DNA of 64,000 bases, from assembly GCA_964650295.1 (NCBI GenBank), contig CAZYSY010000208.1, forward strand, positions 35-64,034, written 5' to 3'. The notes beneath the pieces were generated by a model that was given only the letters and a program-made list of their open reading frames with translations, was not told the origin of the DNA and did no database searches. The first letter of the stretch is position 1, and the number at the start of each line of letters is the position of its first letter. Origin of the DNA: an uncultured Caldilineales bacterium (lineage in GTDB: Bacteria > Chloroflexota > Anaerolineae > J102). Shown piece by piece: positions 35,981 to 64,000 of the stretch. The position numbers and the translations under genes are program-made.

Positions 35981-36444
35981 TCATGTTCTCATCATGCAGC
36001 ACGCCTGTGTTTTGGCCTATCTGCGGCTGGCTCCCTAATGTGCCGAGCACACATGAATGAACCCCTCCAGGACCCGGCTATGCCTCTAGCACGGATCAAC
36101 ATTAAAAAGAACCTGCTCACAAATGCTCTTACCCTCATGCTTACCTGTTGTTCGTCTGCAACAAGAATAGCCTTGATTCAGTTGCTGCTTCAAAAAACGT
36201 TTGCTTAGGCAATGGCTTTATGCTAAACTTAAAGCGTTGCTCCCTTTCATATGCGTGATGCCCGAGGAACGTTTTGAGCCAACACCAGACCCAGGGGAGC
36301 CGGGTCATGCACTGGCCAACGTGATAGCCCTTGATTGGCAAGACTGAGGCTAGGCGTAGGCTCCCACCTGTTTCATACAGGTTCAAAAGCACCTGGGCAC
36401 ACGGTATGGAGGGGGGCGGAGAAATCACAATCTTTTTTCCACCT

Positions 36445-45510: not shown

Positions 45511-46743
45511 TCAGCCACAGCCGCCAGCGCCAGTGGGGGCTTTTTTCTGAAGTTTAATGATCTCATATGGCTCATTTTCGTGGGGCTGCGGTGGGATTGC
45601 GCTGGTCCACCTGTCACCAAGTGCATCGGGAATTACCCAGCCCAAAGTGTCGTCTGGGTGATGGGCAATCTTTTGGAATTGCTCGTTGCCATAGATTTCA
45701 ATCCAGTGATTGATACCACCTTTCAACACGTAGGCATTGATGCTATTTTTGGCTACCAACTGCTTCCATACCTCAATAGCAGTGGTCTCGTCATTGCCCA
45801 TCACAATGACAACAGTACCCTCTGGAGCACGCAATAACTCCTTATAAAGTGTTGGAATTTGCTTCGTGTCAATACGCCTGGCATTCTCGAGGTGATACAA
45901 ATTGTAATCTCGCTCATTACGCACATCCAGAAGTACGATGTTGATCAGAGGATCGTAATATGCTTGACTGACTTCGTGTGGTGGTGCAAAGGCCTTGCCC
46001 TCGGCCAACAGGGCCTGTTTCTCTGCATTGCTGTTCCAGGCGTCAACCAGGGTGGGCTGACCAATAACCAGAATTGCTGCCGCTAATACCAATAAAGCCA
46101 CCGATACTGCCGTCAAAATTCGTTTATCTTTTCGCTGTTCCTCGGGTGTGAGTATGCCTTCACGACGTTTCCAGGCTTTTTCGATGAGATCAGAACCCCA
46201 AACCAAAAGCAAACCCAACACGATAGCGATGGATACCACAACCTCTGTTGGTAATCCTAACCACTCGGATAGTGTGAAACGGCCCATAAAACTAGAATTG
46301 TAAAAATCCCAAAAACTGTCTACGACACTACCAAAAAGCAATCCGCCAGCCATGACGCCAGCGACGAAAAAGATGCCGTCGAGGTGACCTGACGAAGATG
46401 ACACCATTGATGTCCCGGGACAATATCCTCCGATAATGATGCCGAAACCGAGCAGCAATCCGCCAAAAATGCCAGGCCAGAGATAGGTGGGAGGGACAAA
46501 AATACGGTCATAGTCCAACCATCCCAATCCAATAGTGAGGAAGAGTAATGCCATTGCCACCAGAACTGAAGTAAACATAGTCTTGAAAACAGTTTGGTCT
46601 TTGAAATAGAATTGACCCACAAGTTTGTGGGCAACGCCAAATCCTGCGATTTCAAGCGATGCGCCAAAAGCCATACCAAATAGAATAAAGACCATGTACC
46701 CCATGGGTTTGCCGAGAATTGCTACGGGATCAAAAGGCGCCAT
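45511..46743 (-). CDS. YeeE/YedE-family sulfur-compound transporter half fused to a C-terminal rhodanese domain
   Basis: 'GGYCPGTSM' YeeE/YedE signature in the membrane part. The C-terminal ~110 aa (…VLLDVRNERDY…VIVMGNDETTA…) is a rhodanese-like fold. Confidence 0.7.
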   Translation of the reverse strand: MAPFDPVAILGKPMGYMVFILFGMAFGASLEIAGFGVAHKLVGQFYFKDQTVFKTMFTSVLVAMALLFLTIGLGWLDYDRIFVPPTYLWPGIFGGLLLGFGIIIGGYCPGTSMVSSSSGHLDGIFFVAGVMAGGLLFGSVVDSFWDFYNSSFMGRFTLSEWLGLPTEVVVSIAIVLGLLLVWGSDLIEKAWKRREGILTPEEQRKDKRILTAVSVALLVLAAAILVIGQPTLVDAWNSNAEKQALLAEGKAFAPPHEVSQAYYDPLINIVLLDVRNERDYNLYHLENARRIDTKQIPTLYKELLRAPEGTVVIVMGNDETTAIEVWKQLVAKNSINAYVLKGGINHWIEIYGNEQFQKIAHHPDDTLGWVIPDALGDRWTSAIPPQPHENEPYEIIKLQKKAPTGAGGCG

Positions 46744-46789
46744 AAATGCCTCCTATGAAAATACAATGTTATCAGATGTGTGCAAAGCT

Positions 46790-47344
46790 TTAGAACCAAA
46801 GTCGCCGGACGAAGTAAGCAAGCAAATAGCCTCCTGCGAAGAAAGCCAGCAAAAAAGCCCAACTTCCTACCGAGAGAGTGGCGGCACCGTTCAATCCCTG
46901 GCCCGATGTGCAACCACGGGCCAGACGAGCGCCGAACCCCGCCAGGGTGCCGCCAAAAAAGGCGATGATCCAGCGGGTGGAAAAGGTCACTCGTGGACCC
47001 TTCACGGTCTCGAGCTTAAATCGTCCAAAGAACCAAGCGGAGAGAAATCCGCCCAAAAGTACGCCGATATCCAGCATGACAATGAATGAATCTAATGGAT
47101 TCTTGACCCCACCCCCATATTTTATGAGATATGGGGTGCTGTTTACCCAGCCAGGCGCAACAATTTTTGCCAGCCAGATGGCGATACGATTGGCTCCGCC
47201 CGAGGCACCCAAACCGTCACCGGTGAAGAAGTAGACGCCAAATAGAACAAGCCCCAAAATGACGCCAGCGATAATGGAATTCGTGAACGGCTTTGGCTGC
47301 CGTTTAGAGGTAGACTTTGTTTCACTAGTGTATGCAGCAGTCAT
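46790..47344 (-). CDS. YeeE/YedE-family membrane protein (second half-transporter)
   Basis: 'ARLARGCTSGQGL' signature; 184 aa with 4 TM helices. Confidence 0.7.
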   Translation of the reverse strand: MTAAYTSETKSTSKRQPKPFTNSIIAGVILGLVLFGVYFFTGDGLGASGGANRIAIWLAKIVAPGWVNSTPYLIKYGGGVKNPLDSFIVMLDIGVLLGGFLSAWFFGRFKLETVKGPRVTFSTRWIIAFFGGTLAGFGARLARGCTSGQGLNGAATLSVGSWAFLLAFFAGGYLLAYFVRRLWF

Positions 47345-47412
47345 ATCGAATTGCCTCCTTGGTATCGAGCGCGGCGGCCGAAATGTATTGTCGGCCGCCG
47401 CGACTTGACGCG

Positions 47413-50145
47413 TTAAACAGTGACCTTGTGGTCCTCTTTATCTTCCTCGACTTCTACTTCTTCCCAGCCCGTGATCATACCCTCAACTGCAGCGAGTGGT
47501 GTGTGACCAGTCGTGGTGAGGTACATATGCATGATGACAAAGGCTGCAAAGGACCAAGCGACGAATGTGTGAATAGGTGCGATATAGCGCAAGCCGCCAA
47601 TAGCGTTTGAGAGTGCAGGCCATCTTTGAGCGCCCCAGATCAAGATTCCGGTGACAATCTGCAACGGTAACAGTACGTTGAGGATGGCAAGATAGGTGGC
47701 CTGTTGCAACGGGTTCATCTTGCGCTTTTCATTTTTCTCGAAGGGATGCGGTTCCCCCTTAAAAATGCCTTGGCCGTAAAACACCGCTTGTTGTAACGCT
47801 TGGTTGAAGAAACCTTTGGGTTCTGGTAGGAATTGCTGGATGGAATGTCCGGCCAAGAAGTAGAAGAGCGCAAAAAACGCGTTGAACAGTAGCAAGAAGC
47901 CTAGTACGTTGTGGATAGGCACCATTGCGCCCAGGTCCATGGCCCCAAACATGTCAGGACGATGGATGACGATACCAGTAAGAATCAGCAGAATGATGGC
48001 GATGGCTTGCGTCCAATGCCAGAACCGTTCATAAAATGTGTATAGATATAATTTGCGGGTCGGGCCGTTATGTGTGGCCGCGCCATGCGCAGCCGCATAC
48101 ACTCGCAGACCTCCATGGACAAACACGCCAGCGAAAACTCCTAGCATCATCAATACGCCTAACCAGTCAATCCATTTTACACGGTCGTGCCCAGGAAGAT
48201 AGAGCCCTTCTTTGGCCGTACTAGGTTGATAGTACAATTCTCCGTTCTTGCCCCGAACCAAGTCTCCAGTAGGCTCCATGTTTACATCGCCAACCAGGAC
48301 GGGGGTGACGCCACCTGGGGTGTAGCTAGCCAACATCATCGCATCTGAGACACGAGAATCTTCACTATGGCAGGCCGTGCAATCCTGTGTGGAATATTCT
48401 CCCCAGGTTGTGTTATGGGAAATGCTATATGGCTGCACCTCAGCCTGGATGCGAGGATTGTTGAGGCCTATCGCCTCCAACTGGGAGCGTACCACCTCTT
48501 CCTTTTCGGCATTATCGATGCGGAGCTCGGAGCGTGCGAGACGCCCGTCCTTGTTGATGTCAAAGGCGCTCACGATTTCTGTTTTGTAATTGCCGTCATC
48601 GCCAAAAAAGGCTTTCTTCAAATCAATTTGACGCACTGGCCGAGCCGGATCGCCATAAACCCAGTACCATGAGCTAACCAGGTTGAACGGAGCTAGCTTC
48701 AAATTACCTTCAGTGTCATATCTAGGCAGCAAGATGGGTTTAAACCCTTCCAACATGTTATAGGGATTGTGTGGGTTTCCGTCGCCTGTCACATTACGAT
48801 AGATAAGAATTCCTTTGCCGTCGCGGTCGATTACCGTCCAGTCGTTTTGCTGTATGGCTGTGGCGTGGATGGTTGGAATGTGGCAAGCCTCACAACTGAG
48901 CTTCTGAGCGTGGCGATCTTCGTACGGCAGCCAGGTGTGGGTTGATTTGTAATCATGGCACGATTCGCAACGACGCATACTTTCGGTGAAAGAAGAGCCA
49001 ACTTCGGTTTTAGTTACTGCACCACGAGCAAAATCGTGTATGGGTTTTTGCAGATAGTCAGAAATGTCAGGGCGGCGCGGTTCAAAGACAAGGTGTTGGG
49101 GATTCAGTTCCTTTGGCGGTTCATAGTAGGTGGGATTGTTCAGCGCGAAATGGCAGTCGGTACATTTAAGGTTCCGTTCTGCATGCACATCCCAGGAACG
49201 TTTGAGTTCGCTTTTCCCCTTGATGTTTAAGGCGCTATCCGAAATGCGTTGGCCAGAGAATATCTGCCCTGTACGCATGGTCGTCCAGTCATCTCTGTTG
49301 AAGTCGCGGTAGGAAAGTGCTGTAGTGATATCAGTCTGCACCTCGCCGTGGCATTGGCCGCAATTGCTGCTAGAGGGGCTTTGGATAGGAAGAACGTCTG
49401 GGTTGAGGTTGCCTTGCTCGTCGAACGCATCCTTGTTGTATATCATGCCCTTTCCGTCAGGAGCGGGTTGGACTATGCCTGTTCCCACCAGTGTCGCTGT
49501 ATTGGCCCAACCGAATGCGCCCTCTTTTAGCATGTTAATCCGGGCTGAATTGTTGGGCTTGGGCATGTGGCATAGGAAACAGTTCATTTCCACAGTTCCC
49601 GACTCCTTCCAATCCCAGGGCTCCAGCTGGCCTGTGAGCGGATTAAGAATGCTGGTTTCAGGATTGTCGGCGCTTGCCGACAACTCTTTGAGAGACAGTC
49701 CTTGACGGCTGGTTTCGGCTGGGCCTCCGCCAACAAAATGTGCTCCATACGCCTTGAGCCAACCAGCGGTGGTGAGATCAATGTTGCTGTCTTCTGTTGG
49801 GCTGAGATAACGGTAGGTGATGGGGTCCCAAAGGCCAAAAAGGCCATTGCTGGTATCCCACGGTCGCCCTGACGGCGCCTGGCCAGCTGGGAGCATTTGA
49901 TTCAAACCAACCTGGCTATGGAAGCTATGGCTTTCTATGAATTCTGTGTCATGGCAACTTCCACAAGTGTGCATGACTGAAACAGGTTTTCCCGACACAA
50001 GAACGTTGGTGCCATCTTCGTCCAATAGTGGAAATGTTGGATGGATGGGCGAGGGCTGTGCGGAAGCGACGCCCAGACTGACGAGAACCAGCATCAGCGC
50101 CAGCGCTGTCAGTCCCACGTAGCGCTTGAAGCTGTTGTGCATCAT
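47413..50145 (-). CDS. Heptaheme c-type cytochrome fused to a C-terminal di-heme cytochrome b membrane domain (CbcL-like putative quinol oxidoreductase)
   Basis: Signal peptide. Seven CxxCH motifs (CGSCH, CFLCH, CGQCH, CTDCH, CESCH, CEACH, CTACH). The C-terminal ~230 aa has 4-5 TM helices with conserved His (Ni/Fe-hydrogenase/FdnI-type cytochrome b-like). It overlaps the upstream gene by ATGA. Confidence 0.8.
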   Translation of the reverse strand: MMHNSFKRYVGLTALALMLVLVSLGVASAQPSPIHPTFPLLDEDGTNVLVSGKPVSVMHTCGSCHDTEFIESHSFHSQVGLNQMLPAGQAPSGRPWDTSNGLFGLWDPITYRYLSPTEDSNIDLTTAGWLKAYGAHFVGGGPAETSRQGLSLKELSASADNPETSILNPLTGQLEPWDWKESGTVEMNCFLCHMPKPNNSARINMLKEGAFGWANTATLVGTGIVQPAPDGKGMIYNKDAFDEQGNLNPDVLPIQSPSSSNCGQCHGEVQTDITTALSYRDFNRDDWTTMRTGQIFSGQRISDSALNIKGKSELKRSWDVHAERNLKCTDCHFALNNPTYYEPPKELNPQHLVFEPRRPDISDYLQKPIHDFARGAVTKTEVGSSFTESMRRCESCHDYKSTHTWLPYEDRHAQKLSCEACHIPTIHATAIQQNDWTVIDRDGKGILIYRNVTGDGNPHNPYNMLEGFKPILLPRYDTEGNLKLAPFNLVSSWYWVYGDPARPVRQIDLKKAFFGDDGNYKTEIVSAFDINKDGRLARSELRIDNAEKEEVVRSQLEAIGLNNPRIQAEVQPYSISHNTTWGEYSTQDCTACHSEDSRVSDAMMLASYTPGGVTPVLVGDVNMEPTGDLVRGKNGELYYQPSTAKEGLYLPGHDRVKWIDWLGVLMMLGVFAGVFVHGGLRVYAAAHGAATHNGPTRKLYLYTFYERFWHWTQAIAIILLILTGIVIHRPDMFGAMDLGAMVPIHNVLGFLLLFNAFFALFYFLAGHSIQQFLPEPKGFFNQALQQAVFYGQGIFKGEPHPFEKNEKRKMNPLQQATYLAILNVLLPLQIVTGILIWGAQRWPALSNAIGGLRYIAPIHTFVAWSFAAFVIMHMYLTTTGHTPLAAVEGMITGWEEVEVEEDKEDHKVTV

Positions 50146-51656
50146 TGTTGGCCTCCTGGCTGAGCATTGGCGTTTTCAAGCGTGGCATTGCGACTGCCGT
50201 AAATCATAGGGTCTCCTTCATATCCCAGCGCTTCCCAGTCCAGACGTCCTGGCGATCCGTCGGGAGTATGGCAGGCATTGCATTGCAGAGCATCTTCCTT
50301 GGGAGCCACCATATGGGTGGTTGGCCAATACATGGCTGTGCGAGCAAAACCGTAATCGCCACTATATGGGAGTCCAAAGGCTTTTGCTCCGTCGCTCAGC
50401 GCTTTGTCCCAATCGAAGTCACTCCAGTACCCTCCTGGGCCAAAGGTGTGGGGGGTGAGCAGAATATTGTATTGCTTGTCGTAGGGCTGAGTGGCGTGGT
50501 GTACCTTGAAGGGGAAAATTTTTGCAGTAGGATCATTAATGGAGCCCGCTGGGGCGTTTAGTACCAGCTCTTGGGATGGATCAAATCGATCTCCAATCAG
50601 ATATCGGTCTTCGAGCTTTCCGTTGTACCAGGTGTAGGTGGGAACAACATCGCGTTCATAGACAAACTTACCTTTGATTTTGAGGTATTCGTGCGGATTA
50701 GTGATTGGAAGATCTTTGCCAGCTTGGGACCAATCCCAATAGGTTTTTGTTGCCTCTTTTCGAGCAAAAGCTGGAATATGACAGGTTTGACATGCAACCG
50801 TTTGTGTGTGCATGTTGAGGCGGTCATCTTGATGGGGCGTTTCGCTGTGACAGTCGGTGCAATGCACCTGGTTCTCGTCATCCAGGCTGACGGAAATCGA
50901 ACGCCCTCTCATGACGTGATGCTCGGCGCGATGGCAGTCGGTACAAACCATGTCTTCTCCCCCCATGTGAACATCCAGTTCTCGCGTGGGGTTGATAAGG
51001 GAGTTGTCCAGGTCTCCGTGCTTAACTGCATCTCCTCCTCCCCCTCGAAAATGACAGGTGCCGCAATTAATGCGCGTTGGGGGGCCGACATGTTTGGCGA
51101 TGTTCACTAGATCAACCGATTCAGCAGGCACGCCCTTTTTGGCCTTCACATAATAGCCTGTATTGTCATGGCAGGCTAGGCAGTCTATATTTTTGGGCTC
51201 CGAAAAATCGAAGGTATCATTCTCCCAGCCATAGCCAGCATGACAGGCTGTACAGGCTGGCCAGTTTGGCTTGATGGTAATGCAGAAGTTGTTCAGCACA
51301 TGTCCCTTGCCAGTCTTTACAGGTTCTTTCAGACCTAATACGTTATCGTGCTCGCCCGGAACGTCATCCAGCGCATACTCGTGCGTCCATGTGAAGTGGT
51401 TGTTGTGCAGCATCTCTTCCCCTGCCTCAGGATGGCATTCCAAACAGGCTTCTGTAACATCCTGACCTGTCGTGAAGTCTGCCCCATTGAAGAAGCCACT
51501 ATGATCGGTGGGCATAGAGTGCCTTGGGAGATGTGCTCTGGGGTCGTCGATTTGTTGGGAAGATGCTTTTGGCACAGCAACCAGGGTGATGGGAACCCCA
51601 AAAATGATTAGGGTTATGAGGATACCTATAATCCAGTTTTTTTTGCCATGAAGCAT
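50142..51656 (-). CDS. Membrane-anchored octaheme c-type cytochrome (OTR/HAO-superfamily-like)
   Basis: N-terminal TM anchor and eight CxxCH motifs (CLECH, CTACH, CLACH, CGTCH, CTDCH, CTDCH, CQTCH, CNACH) in 504 aa. Confidence 0.8.
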   Translation of the reverse strand: MLHGKKNWIIGILITLIIFGVPITLVAVPKASSQQIDDPRAHLPRHSMPTDHSGFFNGADFTTGQDVTEACLECHPEAGEEMLHNNHFTWTHEYALDDVPGEHDNVLGLKEPVKTGKGHVLNNFCITIKPNWPACTACHAGYGWENDTFDFSEPKNIDCLACHDNTGYYVKAKKGVPAESVDLVNIAKHVGPPTRINCGTCHFRGGGGDAVKHGDLDNSLINPTRELDVHMGGEDMVCTDCHRAEHHVMRGRSISVSLDDENQVHCTDCHSETPHQDDRLNMHTQTVACQTCHIPAFARKEATKTYWDWSQAGKDLPITNPHEYLKIKGKFVYERDVVPTYTWYNGKLEDRYLIGDRFDPSQELVLNAPAGSINDPTAKIFPFKVHHATQPYDKQYNILLTPHTFGPGGYWSDFDWDKALSDGAKAFGLPYSGDYGFARTAMYWPTTHMVAPKEDALQCNACHTPDGSPGRLDWEALGYEGDPMIYGSRNATLENANAQPGGQQ

Positions 51657-51799
51657 AAGCCTTACCTCACTGTAATGTCGGTGTGTATGGGGCTCAGGCT
51701 TCCTGCCGGGTTTGGGTTTGGCTCAGCTAGCGGGAAGGCTGAAATAAGGTAGAAGTGTTGTTTGGTATAGATTAAAAAAAATTGTTTGATGGCTAATTG

Positions 51800-51817
51800 T
51801 TTGATGGTGATATCAAA
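51800..51817. promoter_or_regulatory. Candidate ArsR/SmtB-type operator: TTTGAT-N6-ATCAAA inverted repeat, overlapping a direct repeat ttgtttgatgg x2 (51783-51808)
   Basis: Read directly in the 184-nt gap between arsR-like and the octaheme gene. Confidence 0.3.
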
Positions 51818-51840
51818 TGGACTTGCGCGTTTTACGTCGG

Positions 51841-52191
51841 TCAGTGGGCCTCCTTTGAAGTAGAAGATATTTGGTTGAGAAGTTTAGAGTGAGAGTTGAT
51901 ACGTTCATTTAGGACATCCCGCAAAAGCTCTAGAGCCTGAATGACGCGGATATCACTGAGTTCATATACGACTTCGCGCCCACGGCGCTCGAAGCTGACC
52001 AGTCCACTGTTGCGGAGAATGCGTAAGTGGCGAGAGACTGTGGATTGTGGAAGACGCAGGCGGGTTGTCAGGTCCGTGACATTGCTGGGGCGCTCCGAGA
52101 GGGCATAAAGGATAGCGATGCGGTTTGGGTCAGAAATCCCTGAGCATAGTTCAGCATGCATTCGGGCGATTTCTGCTCGTCGTGGGATCAT
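51841..52191 (-). CDS. ArsR/SmtB-family metal/redox-sensing transcriptional repressor
   Basis: Winged-helix HTH 'NRIAILYALSERPSNVTDLTTRLRLPQSTVSRHLRILRNSGLV' with a Cys in the N-terminal region. AAGGAG sits before the ATG. Confidence 0.85.
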   Translation of the reverse strand: MIPRRAEIARMHAELCSGISDPNRIAILYALSERPSNVTDLTTRLRLPQSTVSRHLRILRNSGLVSFERRGREVVYELSDIRVIQALELLRDVLNERINSHSKLLNQISSTSKEAH

Positions 52192-52798
52192 CAGGGCGCT
52201 CCTTGGCTACAAACAATTTATCCGGAAATGCGGATACACGCATTCACAGTATTTTAATCTTTTTCACCCCACTCCCATATGATATCGATCATGTTTGGAA
52301 GCTCTATCACATTTTTTGTTAATCTTGCGAGTGTATCCCAATCAAATTTCGATGCTTGCCAATACTGCTGCGTGAGCTTTTGGTGAACGCTTTAGGCTTT
52401 TCGGCATAAATACGCCTGCCTTGTTAGCGCATTCCACAGTTCTACTAGATTGTGATCCATACCCAGCAACTCTGAAAGGTTTACAAGCTCTTGGGTAAAT
52501 GTTGGGAGAACTGTTGGCCAAATCGGCGTGAAAAGTTTCATGTGGTTACATAAATATTTTACACGTTTGCGCTAATCATGGAAATTGGCGGTTGACGGTG
52601 AGCGCGACATCGTTCTAACCTGAGATGTTCACGAGCATAAACTCAACGCAAACCTTGCTCTGGAAAAAAGTCGCCTCTCGGAGTATTCCGCGAATACGCG
52701 TGAAGCACTTTCTCATCTAGCGCACTGCGCCATCCACATTCTGATTTGGTATGGTTAATTGCGAAATGGGTGGTAGAGACCGGTTATATTGGGCGGAA

Positions 52799-53713
52799 TT
52801 ATGTTTTTTCTTCGAAAAGTTCTTGTAAACGCGGGACTTGTTGTAACATCTCCGTTTCGCTGAACGTCGCCTCCCAAAATGGTCCAATGCCTCCGCACTC
52901 CAGCGAAACGACCCATGGTTTTTGCCATGAACCAGATTGCAATTGCATTGCAGCCCATTTCATGATGCTCCAATCTCTGTTCGTCAATGGAAGGTGATCA
53001 ATCATTCCGTTGGGCAGCCAAGCACCATCAGGGCCAATGAGTTTTTCGAGTTTGGAGCGCTCAAGGCCGTTTTTTTCAGCACGTTGTATCCAGTATTCAT
53101 TTACTACTTGTATTCCGGTGACGTGAATTTCACGTACGGCATGCAAAGGGAGCGCTGCGATGTACTCGCGATATCCCAAACCCAATTGCATGGCAGCCAT
53201 CCGGGCGTGAGAGATATCAAAGAGGAATCCGGTTCCAGTTTCCTCAACAACCCGCGTGATTGTGTCTGCGTGGAAGATGGCATAGTCGTTCCTTGCCCCC
53301 AAGTGGTAACCGTTTTCAAGAATAATCATCTCTTTTCCAAATCGAGAGACGACAGATTCTACATCTCGAATCATGCGCTCCTGCACTTGTTCGGCAGTTA
53401 TGTGATTCTCACTCTCGGGGGTGTCGCTCCTCAACTCCCCTTCGGAGAGGATGTGTAGATTCAGGTAAGGGGTATCTGTCTGTTCTAGCAGTCTTTCGAA
53501 TTTTGGCCAGTCCGCGGGCCTTTTTGTCTCTACGTCGATGGCGTCACCGATTCCCGCACCTACGCCTAAGGGAAAGTGAATGTAGATGGGAAAGTTACCT
53601 CTAAGTCGTGTTATGAGTTCGGGCCATGCAGGGCATTTGAAAACATCGGGCCTGATTAGGCCTTGGGTGGTTAGCTTCGCCGCAGTTTCCGAATAGTTGA
53701 GTCCAAATTTCAT
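52799..53713 (-). CDS. DUF692-family (multinuclear non-heme iron oxidative enzyme, MNIO-like) TIM-barrel protein
   Basis: Motifs 'ILENGYH', 'FLFDISHARMAA' and 'EIHVTG' parallel the conserved DUF692/xylose-isomerase-like metal-binding strands. The start was set to ATG at 53713 (MKFGLNYS) because the longer track ORF would overlap the upstream gene by 118 nt. Confidence 0.5.
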   Translation of the reverse strand: MKFGLNYSETAAKLTTQGLIRPDVFKCPAWPELITRLRGNFPIYIHFPLGVGAGIGDAIDVETKRPADWPKFERLLEQTDTPYLNLHILSEGELRSDTPESENHITAEQVQERMIRDVESVVSRFGKEMIILENGYHLGARNDYAIFHADTITRVVEETGTGFLFDISHARMAAMQLGLGYREYIAALPLHAVREIHVTGIQVVNEYWIQRAEKNGLERSKLEKLIGPDGAWLPNGMIDHLPLTNRDWSIMKWAAMQLQSGSWQKPWVVSLECGGIGPFWEATFSETEMLQQVPRLQELFEEKT

Positions 53714-53721
53714 TGTCGGTC

Positions 53722-54249
53722 TTACTCTCTTGTAATTTTCTTTTTGAAGATACCAAAACGGATATTCTTCCCTGCAATATGGTTTCGCAAGGGTTCTGGC
53801 GACAATTTGAACCCGAGTTTTTTCCAGAAACGCATCCATTCTGCATCATTCAAAGGGACCGCCGTACGGAGTTCGATCGTAGGAGAAGCAATTCGCAGCC
53901 ATTCTTCCAGGATATTGACGCTCCACGTGGCGATTTCCTCTCTCTCACCCGGAGTTTGGTCTTGCAGAATGAGGGCACCCAGCCAGACTACATTCTCCAC
54001 CGGATGGTGGAATCGAAAATCCAATGCACCAATAAGTTGTTCATCTTGCCACCAGATAGCCATGATTGCTCGATCGTCACTTTCTAACATCTGTTGGTAG
54101 TCGTTCACAGCCTGAATCGTAGAAGCGGGATGGCTGGTGAATGTGATGAAATATTTTCTACTGGCCTCATACATGCGTTGCAAGTCGGCTAGCATTTCTG
54201 TAGTGAGTGGCTTCAGCTTAATGGGGGGAGGCTGAGTTGTCGTTGGCAT
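53722..54249 (-). CDS. GNAT-fold acyltransferase-like protein (175 aa)
   Basis: GNAT-like secondary-structure pattern (…PLTTEMLADLQRMYE…AIMAIWWQDEQLIGALDFRF…VWLGALIL…). It is tightly coupled to both neighbours, with 3-nt and 8-nt gaps. Confidence 0.4.
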   Translation of the reverse strand: MPTTTQPPPIKLKPLTTEMLADLQRMYEASRKYFITFTSHPASTIQAVNDYQQMLESDDRAIMAIWWQDEQLIGALDFRFHHPVENVVWLGALILQDQTPGEREEIATWSVNILEEWLRIASPTIELRTAVPLNDAEWMRFWKKLGFKLSPEPLRNHIAGKNIRFGIFKKKITRE

Positions 54250-54252
54250 TAT

Positions 54253-55128
54253 TTATCGTCTCTCGGCATATTCGAAAGTTTGGCGTAGTTTGATGATTGT
54301 GTTGGCCGGATAGTAGCCTTTAGGAAGGGAAGCACTGGCGTAAAGTAATGTATTTGGGCCAATGAGGACGCCTGGGTTCAAAACGCTGTTGCATCCTGTT
54401 TGTACGTCATCTCCGAGAATGGCTCCCAGTTTGGTCAGCCCTGTGTCATGCACCCGGTCCAAAATCTTTATTTTTATACTCGGACGCCGGCCTGTTAGAG
54501 GGTCTTTGCGGCTGACCACCGTCAGGTTCGAGAGTTTTGTTCCGGCTCCTAAGTTCACCCTATTTCCCAAAATGCTATCTCCAACATAATTGAAATGAGG
54601 TGCATGTGCACCTGGAAGCAGGATGCTGTTCTTCACCTCCGTGGCGTGCCCGACCATACTGCCTTCGCAAAGTAATGCGTTTGATCGAATATATGCACCA
54701 TGTCTTACCAAAGTTCGTGGGCCAATATATGCTGGGCCTTCAATATACGCACCTGATTCAACCACCGCGCCAGGCCCGATATAAACATCCGTATCGGGCT
54801 TGATGTAGGCTCCATCAGCGACATCTCCAAAAATCTGGCAACCTTTACCGCCAATATGTGCTTCGAGATAGTTGGCAAGTTTGGGCAAGGCCTCCCAGAC
54901 ATAACCAATATCCCGAAAGAGTGGTGCATGGGGGGTATGTGACAGGTCGAAAAAATCACTGGGCGCGAGTTTTGGTGACATCGTGAACGCTCCAATCTGC
55001 ATTTCACGGGGTAAGATATTGGGCAAAGGCTGGTTCCCTGGGCATGTCTCCATTTGATGCTCGGGATCGACATTCATCATACATGCCATCACCCTAGCCT
55101 TCAAAATCACGCCTCCTTTGGATTTCAT
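54253..55128 (-). CDS. Left-handed beta-helix (hexapeptide-repeat) acyl/nucleotidyl-transferase family protein (start uncertain)
   Basis: Multiple [LIV]-G-x-x-x-x hexapeptide repeats (…YIGPGAVVESGAYIEGPAYIGPRTLVRHGAYIRSNALL…). Candidate starts are ATG 55128, or TTG 55107 after AAGGAGG. Confidence 0.65.
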   Translation of the reverse strand: MKSKGGVILKARVMACMMNVDPEHQMETCPGNQPLPNILPREMQIGAFTMSPKLAPSDFFDLSHTPHAPLFRDIGYVWEALPKLANYLEAHIGGKGCQIFGDVADGAYIKPDTDVYIGPGAVVESGAYIEGPAYIGPRTLVRHGAYIRSNALLCEGSMVGHATEVKNSILLPGAHAPHFNYVGDSILGNRVNLGAGTKLSNLTVVSRKDPLTGRRPSIKIKILDRVHDTGLTKLGAILGDDVQTGCNSVLNPGVLIGPNTLLYASASLPKGYYPANTIIKLRQTFEYAERR

Positions 55129-55321
55129 GGGTGCGGCCTTCAGGTCAGAGCGTATCGACTGGTCTAGTGTTGCATACGGCAAGGTGCACTTCAAGAAATG
55201 GGAACGCTTCTTTCCAGGCCGACCCAAGTAGGACCAGTGTGTCATTAGACAAAGTGTCCCGAAAATGAAACGCCCCTACGGAATCCTGGTTTGCTTTCGT
55301 GGCTGAGTTTGGGTATGATGG

Positions 55322-56166: not shown

Positions 56167-59100
56167 GTGATGACAACATTTTCCCCCTATGAGTCTATTC
56201 AAGATGTTGTACGGCGTCGGCAAAATGCTGGTTTTGTTGGGCGCTTCCAGTATATCGAGCGCTTTCAACAGAACTTGAGCAAGGATTTTGATGATCCAGA
56301 TCGACGATACATTTTTGTGGTGACGGGCGAGTCCGGTACGGGTAAGACCTGGCTTTTGCATCAGCTTCAGCGTCGCCTCGAACTTGAGTCTGGTGCTTGG
56401 GCGGTGTGGGACAGTGGCAAAGCAGAAGGTCCGCTTGCTGTGATGGTTCATCTCGCCGAGCAATTTGCACGTCTTGGCCTTACCATGCCTACTTTTGCTG
56501 AAGCCTACCAACGATATCTTAATTCCTTACGATATCTGGCTGAGCGACTCGACCAGTCATCTGGTGTACGCTTTTTTGTTGCCAATAGCCTCGTTGATGC
56601 TCCCGTCCGATGGCAGCACACGGATTCAGAGTGGGGCATCATCGCAACAGCCGATTTGCAATCGCTTTTTGATGATCAACTGCGCTTCCGAGAGAAATTG
56701 CCTCGACAGCTATTAGCTGATGAGCAGACCTACCAGCTGGTGAGTGATCCTGTTCGCTCTTTTACACCGCTGTGGTTGGCCGACTTGCGAGCACTAGCGA
56801 AAAAAGACGTGCTGGCTTTGTTCTTTGATGATGTCCATGCCGCGGGCGACTGGCTGGAAGATTGGTTGTTTCAAATCTTTTCTGGTGAATTCGGAGAGAC
56901 GCCGACTGCCACGCTTTGGGTGTTGAGCTCCGCTCAGCCTATTGATGTCCAGCGATGGCAGCCTTTGTCCGACGTTGTGGCTCGCTTTGTGCTCAAGCCC
57001 CTGTGTCAAAAAGATGTCGATGATTTTCTCCGGCGTTTTGGTGGTGAACTCTCCGCTGAGGGCGCAGTGAGGTCACAGTTAGATGAGGCCGCACCTGCTG
57101 ATTTGATCGTATTGGCCTCCTACCGTAAGATTTTTCAGCGTGATTTACCAATGACTGCTACCAGCGATCCCTTGGGTTTGCTTTTTGAGTCGCTTTCACC
57201 TGAGCAACAACGGGTTTTGGCGATCTCTGCCCTTCCGGATCTGCTTACACGGGCCGGGTTAGGCAAACTTTTACGCGTGTCCTCCGAACACCCGCTCATT
57301 GATTGGTTTTTCTCACTTCCTCTGGTGCAGCCATTGAGTACTGGGTGGCACATGTCCGGTGCCATACGACAGGAGTTGTTGGAGCTCGGAAGGAAGAAAG
57401 TGCCAGAGGCAGTTTCTGACGCATTGTCAATCATCGCTGCAGATTGGCGGCGCCATGGAGACGCATTGCAGCATTCTGGTCCAGCTAGCTGGGCTGATTT
57501 GTCCTGGAGAGAGGCGTGGCTGACGCATTTGCGTTATCGTCTATTGCAAGATGCAGAAACCTATCTGGGCATGGCTCTTGATGCTGCACTTCCTACTATG
57601 GAGATGAACCCCGCCTGGACTAAAAGCCTGGCTCGCACCCTTCTGAATGCTAGCGATGAAGGGGCTGGCGATGAAGTTAGGGCATGGGGGGAAAGGTTGT
57701 TCAACGGCGCCGAGGCGCTCTCTACGGCCAACTATCAAGGGGCGTTGGCATTGGTGAATGCGCTTATCGATGAAGCTGAATTGGAGCCACATCGATTGAG
57801 TCAGGCGCTTGGCATGAAGGCCTGGCTTTTGCGAGCACAACAACAGATGGAGGAAGCCCTTGAGTTCTACACCCAGGCAGAAGACTCAAAGCATAGCCCT
57901 GCTTGGTTGGCGGCTCAGCGTGCAGCCACTCTTTATTTGATGGGGCAGCGTTCAAAGGCTGGCGAGGTTCTCACCTTCGCCCTTGAACAGAAAAATGATT
58001 TGGATTGGGCGCTTGCACTACGCGGCTGGCTGTCGTTTGAAGAAATGAAGCTTGCTGCTGCTCGAGATGATTTTTCTGCCGCCCTCTCATTGAACAGTGA
58101 CCAATTGATTTGGGCACTGCCATTTCGGGCTGAGATTAGCAGACGCTCTGGCAATTATGAAGGTGCGTTATCTGATCTCAACCTTGCGCTTGACAAGTTT
58201 TCGGATCGGGCCTGGATGTATGCTTTGCGCGGCGTTGTTCTGCGGGAGCTTGATCGCTTTGAAGAGTCATTATCCGATTTCGACAAAGCTCTTAGTTTAG
58301 AGCCCGATAGTGTTTGGATAATCGCACAGCGCGCTCAATCACTAGAAGCCAACGGTCAAGAGGAGTTGGCGTTACAGGTCTATGCTCAAGCACTTGAATT
58401 AGCCCCTGATGATGTTTGGACTTTAACTCGCCGTGGCATTTTGTTGCAGAATATGGGGCGTCATCACGATGCTTTGCAGGACCTCAATCGGGCTGTTGAG
58501 TTAGATTCCTCAGATGCTACACCTTTGGTTGCACGGGCTGCGTTACACCAATCACAAGGCGAGCATCTACTAGCATTGGGTGACCTTGACGCCGTTGTTG
58601 CAATGCAGCCAAACAATAAGGATTTGCTCAGAAGTCGTGCTGCCAGTCGCATTCAGCTACGACAGTATGAGGATGCGGTTGATGATTTGACTCGGGCATT
58701 GACGCTAGAACCAGGTAACAAGGATTTGTTGATTTTGCGCAGTCAGGCTTTTATTGGATTGGGGCAGTTGGATGATGCACTGACAGATATCAATGCGGTT
58801 CTGCATGCCCATCCAAACGATCCCGATGTTCTGGTCTACCGTGCTGATGTGTATCGGCGAATGGGGCAATTTGAAAAAGCGCTTGATTACCTCAACCAAG
58901 TACTGTTAGAACATCCTCAGCATGTCCGTGCATTGGCTCAGCGGGGCGATGTCTATCGGCTGATGATGCGCAACGAAGAAGCGGTTTCGGATTTTGCCCG
59001 CACGTTGTCCATTGATCCTGACAACAGTTGGACACTGGCCCGTCGTGCTGATGTTTACCGCCGAATGGATCGATATCAGGAGGCCCTGGCTGATTTTGCG

Positions 59101-60789
59101 CGTGCGTTGGCAATCAATCCCAGTGATGCATGGGCATTGGCGCATCGTGGTGAAACCTATCGCCAGATGAATGAGTTGGACTTGGCCTTACGTGACTTTA
59201 CTCGTTCCATTGATCTTGATCCTACAGATCCCTGGTCCTGGTCTGGGCGTGGCGAGACATATTGTGAGTTGGGAGAAACCGAAAAAGGCGTGGAAGATTT
59301 TTCTCGGGCATTAGAACTTACTCCCGATGACCCACTCTTATTGGAGTTGCGCGGCGCTGCTTTGGTGGAACTCGATCGAAACGAGGAGGCTTTGGCTGAC
59401 TTCAGTCGGGCGTTGCCATCTCACCCCGATCAAGGTGCATTGCTGACAATGCGGGGCGAGTTACTGTTGAAGTTGCATCACTATAAAGAGAGTGAGGCCG
59501 ACTTAAATCAGGCGTTGACTCTGAACCCCAGTAATGTGGCAGCGCTGATTGCTCGGGGGAGGTTGTTACGTGCGCTAAAGCGCTACAGTGATGCCTTGGT
59601 GGATATGGATCGGGCCATCTCCCTTGATCCCAACAATGGCTGGGCAATGGCTTATCGTGGGGAGCTACATCGGCTATTAAAGCGTTATCATGCTTCTCTT
59701 ACTGATCTTACTGGCGCCCTTACTCTTCTTCCCGATGAACCATGGATTTTGGCGCAAAGAGGTGAATCTCATCGGCTCTTGGGGATGTACGCCGAGGCTC
59801 TATCCGATCTTACCCGTTCTCTGGAACTTCGCCCGAACGATATTTGGACGCTTGCGACACGGGGGCAGGTCTACCGAACCATGGGAAGGTATGATGAGGC
59901 TTTGGATGATTTTAGCAAAGCTATCGAGTTGAGTCCCCGTTACGCCTGGGCGTATGCTAGCCGCGGTGAGACGCTGCGAGTGCTAAAGCGGTACGACCTG
60001 GCCTTGGCTGATTTAGACCGCGCATTGGAGTTGGATCCCGATATGACCTGGGCCTTGGTTAATCGAGGTCAAGTGCATCTGGCGATGAAGAATGCCGAAG
60101 CCGCCTTTGAAGATTTCGATCGGGCAGTCTCCTTGAGCCCCAATTATGCTTGGGCGCTTGCTGGACGAGGACAGGCTAATCGTATGTTGGGACAACTTGA
60201 TGCGGCTCTCGATGATTTCCATCAGTCCATTGCCATCAACCCTAACTTTGTGTGGGCTTTGGTCAATCGTGGGCATGTTTTCCGGCTGCTGGGTGAATAT
60301 AAACGCGCTTTGGCTGATTTTGACCGTGCCATATCGCTTGATCCGAACAACGCGTGGGCAGTTGCTGGTCGCGCCCAGGTAAATCGCACTTTACAGCGTT
60401 ATGATCAAGCTCAACAAGATATTGGCCGGGCAATTGCGCTTACTCCCGATTTGGATATCGATCTCTTTCAGCGGGCAATCACACAGCAGCTGCAAGGCGA
60501 GGTGGAAGGCGCCCGAGCTGATCTTGATGAAGCAATTGGTATCGCTGAACCGGTTTATGAAATCGATCCAACTAACTGGCGCAATACATTCAATCTTGCT
60601 CTGTACTATCTTGCGCGCGGGCGCAGAACCATGGCTGAGCGATTGTATAGGCAAGGTTTGGGCGCTCCCGCACCACTGGCCGAAATCAAAGGCGCTGAAC
60701 GCAGCCTACAAGATTACTATGCTCTTTTCCCAGATAACACCGCAGCCTATGCTATGTTGCAGATGATACGCGACTATCTCAACGACTAA
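56167..60789 (+). CDS. Giant STAND-type P-loop NTPase (AAA_16/NB-ARC-like) followed by about 27 tetratricopeptide repeats; no effector or HTH domain
   Basis: Walker A 'VVTGESGTGKTWLL' near residue 60. From about residue 470 to 1400 there are regular 34-aa TPR units (…AWALAHRGETYRQMNELDLALRDFTRSIDLDPTD…). Confidence 0.8.
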   Translation: MMTTFSPYESIQDVVRRRQNAGFVGRFQYIERFQQNLSKDFDDPDRRYIFVVTGESGTGKTWLLHQLQRRLELESGAWAVWDSGKAEGPLAVMVHLAEQFARLGLTMPTFAEAYQRYLNSLRYLAERLDQSSGVRFFVANSLVDAPVRWQHTDSEWGIIATADLQSLFDDQLRFREKLPRQLLADEQTYQLVSDPVRSFTPLWLADLRALAKKDVLALFFDDVHAAGDWLEDWLFQIFSGEFGETPTATLWVLSSAQPIDVQRWQPLSDVVARFVLKPLCQKDVDDFLRRFGGELSAEGAVRSQLDEAAPADLIVLASYRKIFQRDLPMTATSDPLGLLFESLSPEQQRVLAISALPDLLTRAGLGKLLRVSSEHPLIDWFFSLPLVQPLSTGWHMSGAIRQELLELGRKKVPEAVSDALSIIAADWRRHGDALQHSGPASWADLSWREAWLTHLRYRLLQDAETYLGMALDAALPTMEMNPAWTKSLARTLLNASDEGAGDEVRAWGERLFNGAEALSTANYQGALALVNALIDEAELEPHRLSQALGMKAWLLRAQQQMEEALEFYTQAEDSKHSPAWLAAQRAATLYLMGQRSKAGEVLTFALEQKNDLDWALALRGWLSFEEMKLAAARDDFSAALSLNSDQLIWALPFRAEISRRSGNYEGALSDLNLALDKFSDRAWMYALRGVVLRELDRFEESLSDFDKALSLEPDSVWIIAQRAQSLEANGQEELALQVYAQALELAPDDVWTLTRRGILLQNMGRHHDALQDLNRAVELDSSDATPLVARAALHQSQGEHLLALGDLDAVVAMQPNNKDLLRSRAASRIQLRQYEDAVDDLTRALTLEPGNKDLLILRSQAFIGLGQLDDALTDINAVLHAHPNDPDVLVYRADVYRRMGQFEKALDYLNQVLLEHPQHVRALAQRGDVYRLMMRNEEAVSDFARTLSIDPDNSWTLARRADVYRRMDRYQEALADFARALAINPSDAWALAHRGETYRQMNELDLALRDFTRSIDLDPTDPWSWSGRGETYCELGETEKGVEDFSRALELTPDDPLLLELRGAALVELDRNEEALADFSRALPSHPDQGALLTMRGELLLKLHHYKESEADLNQALTLNPSNVAALIARGRLLRALKRYSDALVDMDRAISLDPNNGWAMAYRGELHRLLKRYHASLTDLTGALTLLPDEPWILAQRGESHRLLGMYAEALSDLTRSLELRPNDIWTLATRGQVYRTMGRYDEALDDFSKAIELSPRYAWAYASRGETLRVLKRYDLALADLDRALELDPDMTWALVNRGQVHLAMKNAEAAFEDFDRAVSLSPNYAWALAGRGQANRMLGQLDAALDDFHQSIAINPNFVWALVNRGHVFRLLGEYKRALADFDRAISLDPNNAWAVAGRAQVNRTLQRYDQAQQDIGRAIALTPDLDIDLFQRAITQQLQGEVEGARADLDEAIGIAEPVYEIDPTNWRNTFNLALYYLARGRRTMAERLYRQGLGAPAPLAEIKGAERSLQDYYALFPDNTAAYAMLQMIRDYLND

Positions 60790-62872: not shown

Positions 62873-63080
62873 GAATCGCCTCTTTTGTAGGAATGGTCGC
62901 GAAACGGTCTATTTGCAAAAACACCGGAAGCGATGCGATGATGCGCTGCTTCCCTGGGATTATACCAGATTATGCGTAACGACTCACGTTACTGTCATGT
63001 CGCTGCCACGGGAGCGCCGCCTTTTGCAGGATGTCGTCAAATGTCAAAAAACACATTCGACGCATACTTAGTAGTTGCGA

Positions 63081-63491
63081 TTATGCATCGTCGGGCGGGA
63101 TGATCTGATAGCTGTGGGTGATGTCCGCAGTCTTCCGCAGCATGGCGGAGGCGGAACAGAATTTCTCTTCGGAAAGCTGGATGGCCCGCTCCACTTTTTC
63201 CGGCTTCAGATCACCTTTGACGATGTATTCGATGTGGATTTTGGTGTACACTTTGGGATGCTCGCGGGCCCGCTCGCCCGAGACGTTGACGGTGACGCCT
63301 TCCACTGGCTGGCGCTGTTTCTTGAGGATGATGACCACATCCACCGCGGTGCATCCGGCCAGACCGTAAAGCAGCAGGTCCATGGCTCCGACGCCTTCCT
63401 GGCGCTTGCCGTCGATGGTGAAACTGTATCCTTCGGGCGTGGTCGCCTCGAATTTCATCTCGTCGATCCAATTGACTGTGGCTTGTGGCAT
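63081..63491 (-). CDS. OsmC/Ohr-family peroxiredoxin-like protein
   Basis: 'LLLYGLAGCTAVDV' and a second Cys in 'KFCSASAML', typical of OsmC. Confidence 0.85.
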   Translation of the reverse strand: MPQATVNWIDEMKFEATTPEGYSFTIDGKRQEGVGAMDLLLYGLAGCTAVDVVIILKKQRQPVEGVTVNVSGERAREHPKVYTKIHIEYIVKGDLKPEKVERAIQLSEEKFCSASAMLRKTADITHSYQIIPPDDA

Positions 63492-63513
63492 GATATTCTC
63501 CGAGCGTGTGTGG

Positions 63514-64000
63514 TTATTTTGTTAGCACGATCTGTGCATTGATGTTTTCAGTCGTGATGGTGACACGTTGCGCGCCGTACGCCTCGAACAGCGAGGCCAT
63601 CTCGGGCGGAGTGATGAAATGGGTCTGCATCAGTGCGATTTTCTCGAGGATGGCGATGATTTTCGTGCCCGTGGTGCGCAGGTCCGGCTCTTCGATGACC
63701 AGACGCCCGCCCGGCTTCAGCACCCGCACCAGCTCTTGCGCGGCCATCTCCTGCCGGGCGAAGTGATGAAACGCGTCCACGATGAGGATGCGCTCGATGC
63801 TGTCGGTGGCGAAGGGCAGCTGCTCGGCCAGCGCGCGTACGCCCGGCAGCCCCTTCTCGCGGGTGGATTTCAGCATCGCGGGCGAAGGATCGACGACCAC
63901 GACCCGCACGCCCGTCGCAGCCAGATGTTGCGCCACTCGCCCCGTGCCGCCGCCGATATCCAACAGCAGGTCTCCTGACCGCGCGTCGAGATGCGCCAGT
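63514..64000 (-). CDS. Class I SAM-dependent methyltransferase (N-terminus beyond the window end)
   Basis: 'LLLDIGGGTGRVAQHL' is motif I. The frame stays open to position 64000 (…ALAHLDARSGDLLL…); the track 'M' at 63963 is a TTG Leu codon. Confidence 0.8.
   Translation of the reverse strand, partial: LAHLDARSGDLLLDIGGGTGRVAQHLAATGVRVVVVDPSPAMLKSTREKGLPGVRALAEQLPFATDSIERILIVDAFHHFARQEMAAQELVRVLKPGGRLVIEEPDLRTTGTKIIAILEKIALMQTHFITPPEMASLFEAYGAQRVTITTENINAQIVLTK

Follow-up and report, generated by a model that had tools for sequence, protein, structure and literature searches.

OTR is an octaheme cytochrome c whose structure was solved in 2004 but whose role in the cell is still open, with tetrathionate, nitrite and hydroxylamine each put forward; in metagenome surveys "otr" is nonetheless counted as tetrathionate respiration. 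Here we analyzed a five-gene module built around an OTR-type cytochrome, which lies at positions 45511-52191, minus strand, of a 64,000-nucleotide stretch of DNA (hereafter the window) from an uncultured Caldilineales bacterium (GTDB lineage Bacteria; Chloroflexota; Anaerolineae; J102). The window covers positions 35 to 64,034 of CAZYSY010000208.1 in assembly GCA_964650295.1, a metagenome contig (ENA ERZ27262694, k141_272080). A preliminary description of this DNA, made without database searches, had proposed an ArsR-controlled, quinol-dependent thiosulfate/tetrathionate redox system.

Several described systems share parts with the module. An otr gene paired with a cytochrome b561 gene has been reported in Ignavibacteriae Ch128a (PMC7509429), otr adjoins divergent soxY/soxZ in lucinid symbionts (PMC11237559), and surveys report otr in Anaerolineae bins (PMC7887784, PMC9040765). 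SoxY is a periplasmic carrier recognized by the signature GGCG(G)-COOH, a motif whose cysteine is where Sox-pathway sulfur intermediates are bound (PMC6067878); the SoxY gene of P. pantotrophus, as read from a mutagenic primer, ends in …GGCG-stop (PMC5336275), and tetrathionate loads the SoxY cysteine as an S-thiosulfonate without any enzyme (PMC6067878, PMC5336275). Sulfur uptake is an established function of TsuA/YeeE and PmpAB-type proteins. PmpB and PmpA are short proteins equivalent to the N-half and the C-half, respectively; each has four helices and a single conserved cysteine, which matches Cys91 or Cys293 of TsuA, and the YeeE-like SoxT imports sulfur to signal to ArsR-type repressors and has been proposed to receive sulfur from the SoxY cysteine (PMC11582611).

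Each component of the window module is of a known kind; what is new is the combination, together with the attachment of a cysteine arm to a cysteine-less rhodanese that is itself tethered to a YeeE channel. In the literature searched we found no published description of the operon, of its 7-heme/cytochrome b partner, or of a rhodanese fold with a SoxY-type end. The module thus appears undescribed, as had been supposed, except that an OTR adjoining a cytochrome b was already on record (PMC7509429).

A conserved five-gene module

The open reading frames (ORFs) of the module, taken from the ORF list and assigned by profile searches, lie head to tail:

51841-52191, minus strand: arsR, 116 amino acids
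50142-51656, minus strand: octaheme cytochrome gene, 504 amino acids
47413-50145, minus strand: 7-heme/cytochrome b fusion gene, 910 amino acids
46790-47344, minus strand: YeeE/YedE C-half gene, 184 amino acids
45511-46743, minus strand: YeeE/YedE N-half and rhodanese-fold gene, 410 amino acids

The preliminary description had counted five genes behind the regulator; the five co-oriented minus-strand ORFs are there, but four of them are structural genes behind arsR, which makes five in total. The octaheme and 910-residue genes share an ATGA overlap at 50142-50145.

A one-genome-per-species collection contains at least 577 matching stretches, and the 80 best loci (L003-L082), among them L070 from Ca. 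Amarolinea, were examined, all from Chloroflexota bins except one. This exception (L074, CAXMRF010000055.1) is binned as Nitrosomonadaceae and is probably mis-binned, because it carries a Chloroflexota-type fused module at the usual 40-55% identity. Wherever the contig was long enough, the octaheme, the c/b fusion, the YeeE half and the YeeE-half-rhodanese followed one another in this order on one strand, with lowest identities of about 50, 50, 55 and 40%, respectively, and arsR lay directly upstream in about three quarters of the loci. When all ORFs of the 80 loci were clustered, the five module families were found in 80, 73, 68, 62 and 54 loci and the next family in 14, and the genes that flank the module in the window were not conserved in the other loci. 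The intergenic spacing is mostly -4 to 25 nucleotides, and in most loci 0-50 nucleotides separate arsR from the octaheme gene. Gene order, spacing and co-occurrence of the families therefore argue for one operon and one functional unit, and the neighbourhood that the preliminary description had picked out turned out to be conserved. In seven of the 80 loci (L011, L012, L038, L046, L054, L056, L065) we also observed a second arsR together with an SQR-like FAD oxidoreductase less than 8 kb from the module, five or six of these loci adding DUF1641-like and DsrE-like genes, a typical sulfide-handling set.

The same parts also occur unfused. We chose three stand-alone rhodanese-GGCG(G) proteins regardless of their context (L088, L089 and L090, all from GC-rich bacteria), and all three end the same gene row: an OTR with 8 CxxCH, a 7-heme protein with a C-terminal anchor, a cytochrome b, a YeeE C-half, a YeeE N-half and the anchored rhodanese-GGCG(G) protein. 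The cytochrome b is a separate gene of 213-222 amino acids in each of the three; the 7-heme domain is a separate gene in L088 and L090 and is split into 4 + 3 hemes in L089. The products are 30-53% identical to the window proteins, and the break points fall at about residue 692/698 of the c/b fusion and about residue 208 of the YeeE-rhodanese fusion. That the six parts are fused in one lineage and split in another is strong evidence that they work together. Two of the unfused loci contain a broken gene, the YeeE N-half of L088 (7384-8004, at the conserved Cys codon) and the 7-heme gene of L089 (4144-6187, between its 4 + 3 hemes), and each break may be an assembly frameshift or a real fission.

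The octaheme cytochrome and the 7-heme/cytochrome b protein

The 504-residue protein scores 559.6 bits on TIGR04315 (cut-off 375), over positions 2-440 of the 440 of the model, and also matches PF11783. It contains exactly 8 CxxCH motifs and matches the Shewanella OTR structure 1SP3 over the whole catalytic domain (E 5.7e-138) with 49.8% identity. K117 (codon 51306-51308) aligns with Lys56 of Shewanella OTR, the unusual lysine ligand of the active-site heme, and C125 (codon 51282-51284) aligns with Cys64; the sixteen heme cysteines and C125 are invariant among 74 orthologues. The assignment to the OTR family made in the preliminary description is borne out by the score above the TIGR04315 cut-off and by the retained active-site Lys and Cys. 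As judged by these matches the protein is a true OTR-family member, sharing with S. oneidensis OTR the eight CxxCH and the equivalents of Lys56 and Cys64, and its tetrathionate reductase activity is putative.

The cytochrome had been called N-terminally anchored with 8 CxxCH; the motif count is right, and the N-terminus has a single hydrophobic segment (residues 5-32), preceded by lysines, that may be either a signal peptide or an anchor. This segment, which we count as a difference from Shewanella OTR, would place the octaheme outside the cytoplasmic membrane, consistent with the requirement for c-type heme attachment. OTR homologues number more than 7,000, and the gene context differs more widely. 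The otr genes of the Shewanella and Marinobacter type are accompanied by genes for a monoheme cytochrome c and a DUF3373 protein, those of the Desulfuromonadia type stand alone, and in contrast to the window module none of these loci has a cytochrome b, a 7-heme partner, YeeE halves or an arm protein. In Shewanella eurypsychrophilus (L083) and Marinobacter (L084) we found a conserved order of their own, monoheme cytochrome c, DUF3373 protein and then otr. The Ch128a pair is closer, in that its OTR adjoins a PF01292-type cytochrome b presumed to oxidise quinol (PMC7509429), but in the window the b subunit is fused to a 625-residue 7-heme domain, and downstream of the pair there are always two YeeE halves and the rhodanese-GGCG domain; nothing of the kind is reported for Ch128a. 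One Chloroflexota locus, L024, contains a second, more divergent OTR paralogue (1064-2464, 42% identity) a few kb upstream of the module.

The 910-residue protein encoded next was divided as follows:

50059-50145, minus strand: signal peptide, cleavable-looking (…GVASA/QP)
48181-50058, minus strand: extracytoplasmic 7-heme domain, residues 30-655, with seven invariant CxxCH
48526-48561, minus strand: EF-hand-like loop, residues 529-540, with D529, G534 and E540 invariant
47416-48177, minus strand: anchor helix and di-heme cytochrome b of the PhsC/HydC/FdnI type, residues 657-910 (PF01292, hydropathy)

Thus a signal peptide is followed by about 625 residues with the seven heme motifs, one anchor helix and a four-helix cytochrome b, in agreement with five hydrophobic segments in the hydropathy profile of the membrane part. 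PF01292 matches residues 702-893 (E 7.7e-24, 84.9 bits, cut-off 30.1), and H710, H728, H745, H859 and H873 are invariant in the cytochrome b domain of the homologues. Its closest named relative is the PhsC model NF011582, on which it scores 143.8 bits, under the cut-off of 204, so that it is not a member; by analogy with the PhsC/HydC/FdnI family the cytochrome b may oxidise quinol. The protein has more than 1,500 homologues, the named ones mostly from Anaerolineae, Caldilineae and Ardenticatenaceae, and PDB searches with it by sequence and by profile gave nothing significant. The heptaheme/cytochrome b fusion overlapping the octaheme gene by ATGA had been read correctly, and so had the EF-hand-like loop, whose three key residues are invariant among 21 homologues; EF-hand Pfam matches are on record for two homologues, and the profile of the protein weakly matches the EF-hands of recoverin.

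The fusion had also been termed CbcL-type. The architecture agrees, since CbcL of Geobacter sulfurreducens, by its description, likewise joins a periplasmic multiheme c domain and a di-heme b domain in one polypeptide. The details set the two apart: CbcL has nine hemes in a 29-kDa domain and six membrane helices, and serves extracellular electron transfer (PMC9129911), whereas the window protein has 7 hemes in about 625 residues, 5 transmembrane (TM) helices, and beta-rich and EF-hand-like subdomains, and in other lineages is divided between two genes.

The spacer that separates the c/b fusion from the first yeeE gene holds a GC-rich hairpin, GCGGCGGCCGA-N9-TCGGCCGCCGC (47371-47401, minus strand), with no T-run. 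Strong hairpins of unrelated sequence recur in the same spacer of other loci (L003, L031, L049, L075 and others); 17 of 31 such spacers gave z < -2, and no T-run followed any hairpin inspected. We infer that these intercistronic hairpins act in mRNA stability or partial termination, and they may set the ratio of cytochrome to transporter.

The half-transporters and the terminal cysteine

The last two genes encode a split YeeE-type transporter, the second half of which carries a further domain and a cysteine-containing end:

46790-47344, minus strand: C-half protein (PmpA-like), 184 amino acids, invariant Cys145, predicted N-in/C-in (PF04143 profile 166-309)
46123-46743, minus strand: N-half (PmpB-like) with an H7-equivalent helix, residues 1-207 of the 410-residue protein (PF04143 profile 4-196)
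45694-45957, minus strand: rhodanese-fold domain without catalytic cysteine, after TM helix 208-228, predicted extracytoplasmic (PF00581, AlphaFold2, Foldseek)
45514-45525, minus strand: C-terminal GGCG-COOH (Cys409), putative SoxY-like sulfur-carrier arm (66 of 67 orthologues)

The halves score 61.1 and 78.1 bits on PF04143 (cut-off 27), over profile positions 4-196 and 166-309. C108 of the 410-residue protein is present in all 67 orthologues and corresponds to Cys91 of S. thermophila YeeE, to residues 6-177 of which the profile aligns, and C145 is present in all 63 orthologues of the 184-residue protein. The preliminary description had taken the two for TsuA-like halves; that they are PF04143 halves stands, but the best scores against the TsuA/YedE models, 37.7 (cut-off 400), 18.6 (645) and 33.5 (350) bits, are about ten-fold under the cut-offs, and orthology with TsuA/YedE was dropped in favour of the PmpA/PmpB type. 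Two half-size genes with one conserved Cys each, rather than a full-length nine-helix protein with three conserved Cys, are what we find. The likeness to PmpA/PmpB and to TsuA/SoxT lies in the half-size pair, the cysteines equivalent to Cys91 and Cys293, and the link to an ArsR-type regulator (PMC11582611); unlike them, the window N-half adds a helix resembling H7, one more TM helix, a rhodanese-like domain on the outside and the Cys arm, and unlike TsuA systems the module has no TusA/TsuB partner.

The topology was predicted from Lys and Arg (K+R) counts among orthologues. The 184-residue protein has 12.3 such residues on the inside and 3.0 on the outside. The 410-residue protein is predicted N-out; its fifth helix corresponds to the central helix H7 of full-length YeeE, and a positively charged cytoplasmic loop and a sixth helix (residues 208-228) follow. 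Because of the N-out topology and the six helices, the remainder of the protein should be outside the cell membrane, and the predicted topology thus puts the GGCG arm on the OTR side. An external arm is independently confirmed by the N-terminal anchor of the free-standing homologues.

A fused rhodanese had been noted at this place, and as a fold it was recovered: PF00581 matches residues 268-348 (E 6.5e-10, 39.8 bits, cut-off 22.2), the domain is modelled by AlphaFold2 with a predicted local distance difference test (pLDDT) score of 80-90 and a disordered C-terminal tail, and Foldseek relates it with probability 1.0 to single-domain rhodaneses including YgaP, at TM-scores of 0.66-0.76. As an enzyme it was not: the loop at the catalytic position reads VIVMGNDETT (consensus VVMSNDET) and aligns to the YCGSGFRS loop of the true rhodanese 6mxv, and no catalytic-loop cysteine was found among the 67 orthologues or in this alignment. 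A cytoplasmic catalytic rhodanese or thiosulfate sulfurtransferase was therefore dropped, the catalytic Cys being absent and the domain predicted external.

The end of the protein is conserved in another way. GGCG-COOH is invariant in 66 of the 67 orthologues although the 30 residues before it vary. Searching residues 201-410 against 1.84 billion cluster representatives gave 342 relatives at E <= 1e-3. Among the best 150 of these, the terminus is GGCG in 99 and GGCGG in 13; the remainder mostly appear to be truncated, and in many relatives the terminal cysteine is the sole cysteine. Two size classes occur, one of about 400-450 residues fused to a YeeE half and one of about 205-215 residues whose only addition is an anchor or signal at the N-terminus. 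A Planctomycetota bin contains a fused form with the GGCGG end. With its 342 cluster representatives this is a sizeable and unrecognised family, in which a rhodanese fold lacking the catalytic cysteine ends in a SoxY-like GGCG(G). It resembles SoxY in its C-terminal GGCG(G)-COOH, which bears the sole functional cysteine, and its predicted extracytoplasmic location. Unlike in SoxY, the arm here is attached to a rhodanese fold, either anchored in the transporter or fused with it, and the module contains no SoxZ, SoxXA or SoxB; among the clustered ORFs of the 80 loci no soxZ-like conserved neighbour was found.

Regulation and the proposed mechanism

The 116-residue regulator matches PF01022 (E 7.5e-18, 64.6 bits, cut-off 22) and NF033788 (82.3 bits, cut-off 55), and stays under the cut-offs of all specific NCBIfam models, including CmtR (58.6 bits), BigR (NF040642; 41.6 bits, cut-off 155) and TsoR, the second-best of them, on which nothing relevant was found in the literature. 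Its single cysteine, C16 (codon 52144-52146) in helix alpha-1, is present in all 59 orthologues, among which E7 and H12 of the same helix are also conserved. Sensing of As(III) was dropped, since one Cys per monomer is insufficient. With the BigR/SqrR/SoxR/YgaV repressors it shares the ArsR/SmtB winged helix, an association with sulfur-trafficking genes including YeeE-type proteins and rhodaneses, and a palindromic operator at its own promoter. The promoter region contains the following elements:

52219-52236, no strand: putative ArsR operator TATCCG-N6-CGGATA, about 45 nucleotides upstream of the arsR ATG, from comparison of orthologous promoters
52251-52256, minus strand: TAAAAT, a -10-like hexamer (GATTAAAAT), conserved in the closest relatives (L003-L006)
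52276-52293, minus strand: degenerate CRP/FNR-like palindrome CATGATCGATATCATATG, at the place of TGTGA-N6-TCACA in most orthologous loci

An inverted-repeat search reported none near arsR, and the operator emerged from the comparison of 59 orthologous promoter regions, 38 of which contain an ATNCG-N6-CGNAT palindrome against 0.11 in shuffles. The window copy is unique within the 64 kb and comes after the conserved TAAAAT. The latter is a candidate promoter element; a sigma-70 promoter scan gave hits no more than in shuffles. A CRP/FNR-type site, TGTGA-N6-TCACA with at most one mismatch, was likewise found in 38 of the 59 regions (0.4 in shuffles), about 109 nucleotides upstream of arsR (range about 85-140 in L003-L082) and often in two copies. 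In the window a second degenerate version lies at about 52300-52317, and a function of the site here can only be suggested because the window copy is weak.

Outside the module, the genes directly upstream of arsR (52799-55245, minus strand), namely an MbnB/TglH/ChrH-family gene (PF05114, DUF692), a family-less ORF of 175 amino acids and a hexapeptide-repeat gene, look like a small peptide-modification or other unrelated cluster and are not conserved beside the module in other loci. A 1540-residue ORF with no Pfam match on record occupies 56167-60789 (plus strand), and a 6S/SsrS RNA gene at 36238-36419 (plus strand; 50.7 bits, gathering score 46.4) is the sole Rfam match in the window. The window ends are richer in G+C (0.637 in 1-2000 and 0.591 in 62001-64000, against about 0.48-0.54 elsewhere). 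Near the module the G+C is an ordinary 0.50-0.52, and a mobile or foreign island was for this reason dropped.

What the sequences show is which genes are present, the families they belong to, their conserved residues, the synteny, the fusion and fission variants and the conservation of the operator. Which way electrons flow and the channel transports, what the substrate is, what the arm does and which effector ArsR answers to we infer. The module would be an autoregulated five-gene operon encoding a membrane-bound, respiratory-type reductase at the outer face of the cytoplasmic membrane. Menaquinol would be oxidised at the di-heme cytochrome b domain, and the electrons would pass via the attached 7-heme domain to the OTR octaheme, where an oxidised sulfur compound would be reduced. 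This compound is most likely an S-S-bonded species, tetrathionate or another, and would be either free or attached to the GGCG-COOH arm in the form of a cysteine S-thiosulfonate or persulfide. The arm would hang from the cysteine-less rhodanese-like domain right above the split (PmpB + PmpA) YeeE-type channel, through which thiosulfate or sulfane sulfur, the product of the reduction, would enter the cell. Either this product or something derived from it would then modify Cys16 of ArsR, the repressor would leave the TATCCG-N6-CGGATA operator, and transcription would rise. The standard potential E0' is about +198 mV for tetrathionate/thiosulfate and about -74 mV for menaquinone, so that reduction is favoured. 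That the parts form one sulfur-related machine we hold with high confidence; the whole reading, a menaquinol-driven extracytoplasmic OTR reductase for oxidised sulfur species with carrier arm and sulfur channel, we hold with moderate confidence. Only tentatively do we suggest that what this OTR clade reduces in the cell is no free anion but the sulfur adduct on the swinging GGCG-COOH arm (cysteine S-thiosulfonate or persulfide/polysulfide). The arm would then perhaps capture external tetrathionate, polythionate or zero-valent sulfur, OTR would cleave the S-S bond with quinol electrons, and the arm, being tethered above the pore, would pass the product straight to the YeeE channel, a sequence of events that we regard as possible but doubtful.

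Several points weigh against the menaquinol-driven reductase. The source organism is an uncultured metagenome bin, and the model rests on sequence comparison and prediction; the AlphaFold2 model of the 910-residue protein has a mean pLDDT of only 54, with heme regions under 40. A scan of the last 62 and last 182 residues of the arm protein at E <= 10 found only the rhodanese and no SoxY Pfam match, and because of this lack of a SoxY fold match the likeness to SoxY is confined to the terminal arm, its last 4-5 residues. The partnership is not universal in the OTR family, since the Shewanella-type otr genes are without these partners, and Shewanella OTR in vitro reduces nitrite and hydroxylamine besides tetrathionate, its physiological role being open (PMC10949509). 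The module encodes no cytoplasmic sulfurtransferase (TusA/DsrE). As for the regulator, it has one invariant Cys in alpha-1, unlike BigR/SqrR/SoxR with their alpha-2/alpha-5 cysteine pair, a metal site formed by H12 and C16 seems equally possible, and no arsR was found in the three unfused modules, which makes the regulator look like a Chloroflexota addition.

The same parts can be read in the oxidative direction. OTR would, like SoxXA, couple thiosulfate or sulfide onto the GGCG cysteine, the electrons would go via the 7-heme/cytochrome b protein to quinones, and the sulfane sulfur held by the carrier would enter through the YeeE channel, to be assimilated or oxidised in the cytoplasm. The GGCG(G) arm is indeed otherwise known only from the oxidative Sox pathway, the proposed transfer from SoxY to SoxT (PMC11582611) and the SQR-like and DsrE-like genes with a second arsR near seven of the 80 modules would fit, and tetrathionate-converting cytochromes such as TsdA are described as bifunctional (PMC5146829). 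Yet the sole characterised OTR is a reductase, and among the ORFs of the 80 loci no SoxB-, SoxCD- or Hdr-like genes were found in or near the module. Electrons from the thiosulfate/tetrathionate couple (about +198 mV) would need energy input to reduce menaquinone, and we consider this oxidative entry unlikely. Assimilatory scavenging, in which a few electrons would break external polythionates, polysulfide or organic di- and polysulfides and YeeE would import the sulfur at a small flux with no energy conserved, differs from the menaquinol-driven reductase only quantitatively. It agrees with the service of TsuA/YeeE and PmpAB-type proteins in sulfur uptake, with transporter genes being always present in the module loci, and with hairpins that suggest a tuned stoichiometry. 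A quinol-linked chain of 15 c-type and two b hemes would however be costly for assimilation, and the CRP/FNR-like site suggests global respiratory or energy control, so that we rate scavenging as quite improbable.

The two remaining explanations leave sulfur aside. If OTR were a quinol-fed nitrite/hydroxylamine reductase for nitrogen-oxide detoxification, as the in vitro activities and its place among the candidate nitrite reductases of the literature (PMC10949509, PMC7509429) would allow, its sulfur-type neighbours would be coincidental or serve another purpose; but OTR is obligately tied to two YeeE halves and a cysteine-arm protein, fused and unfused, in different lineages, no nitrogen-related gene is conserved nearby among the ORFs of the 80 loci, and this explanation is very unlikely. 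Least probable of all is the handling of selenium, tellurium or metal, or extracellular electron transfer, with ArsR as a metal sensor, the cytochromes as a multiheme conduit and a YedE-like selenium import. The NCBIfam models of the YedE selenium transporter and of CmtR give weak matches that point this way (E 2.5e-8 and 58.6 bits, respectively), H12-x3-C16 could form a metal site, and multiheme/cytochrome b fusions such as CbcL serve metal reduction (PMC9129911); the two matches are, however, far under the cut-offs, no YedF, SelD or porin-cytochrome genes were found in the window annotations or among the ORFs of the 80 loci, one Cys per monomer cannot bind As(III) in known ways, and the catalytic OTR, with its open active-site heme, is built like an enzyme rather than a wire. 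A grouping of the octaheme with HAO- or nitrite-type enzymes together with transporters for non-sulfur substrates, or a neighbourhood that dissolves in related genomes, which would have contradicted the preliminary description, was not what we found.

The module gives OTR a fixed set of partners, all pointing to sulfur trafficking, and thereby a first strong genomic clue to its cellular role, with a protein-bound sulfur adduct as a concrete candidate for its true substrate. It also lends support to a model in which carrier arms deliver sulfur to YeeE-type channels. If the adduct on the arm is in fact what OTR reduces, the module would be a reductive mirror image of the Sox system and would provide the first fusion-based ("Rosetta stone") support for the proposed hand-over of sulfur from SoxY to YeeE. 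For the organisms themselves, it suggests that Anaerolineae and Caldilineae of sediments and activated sludge join in the turnover of sulfur intermediates.

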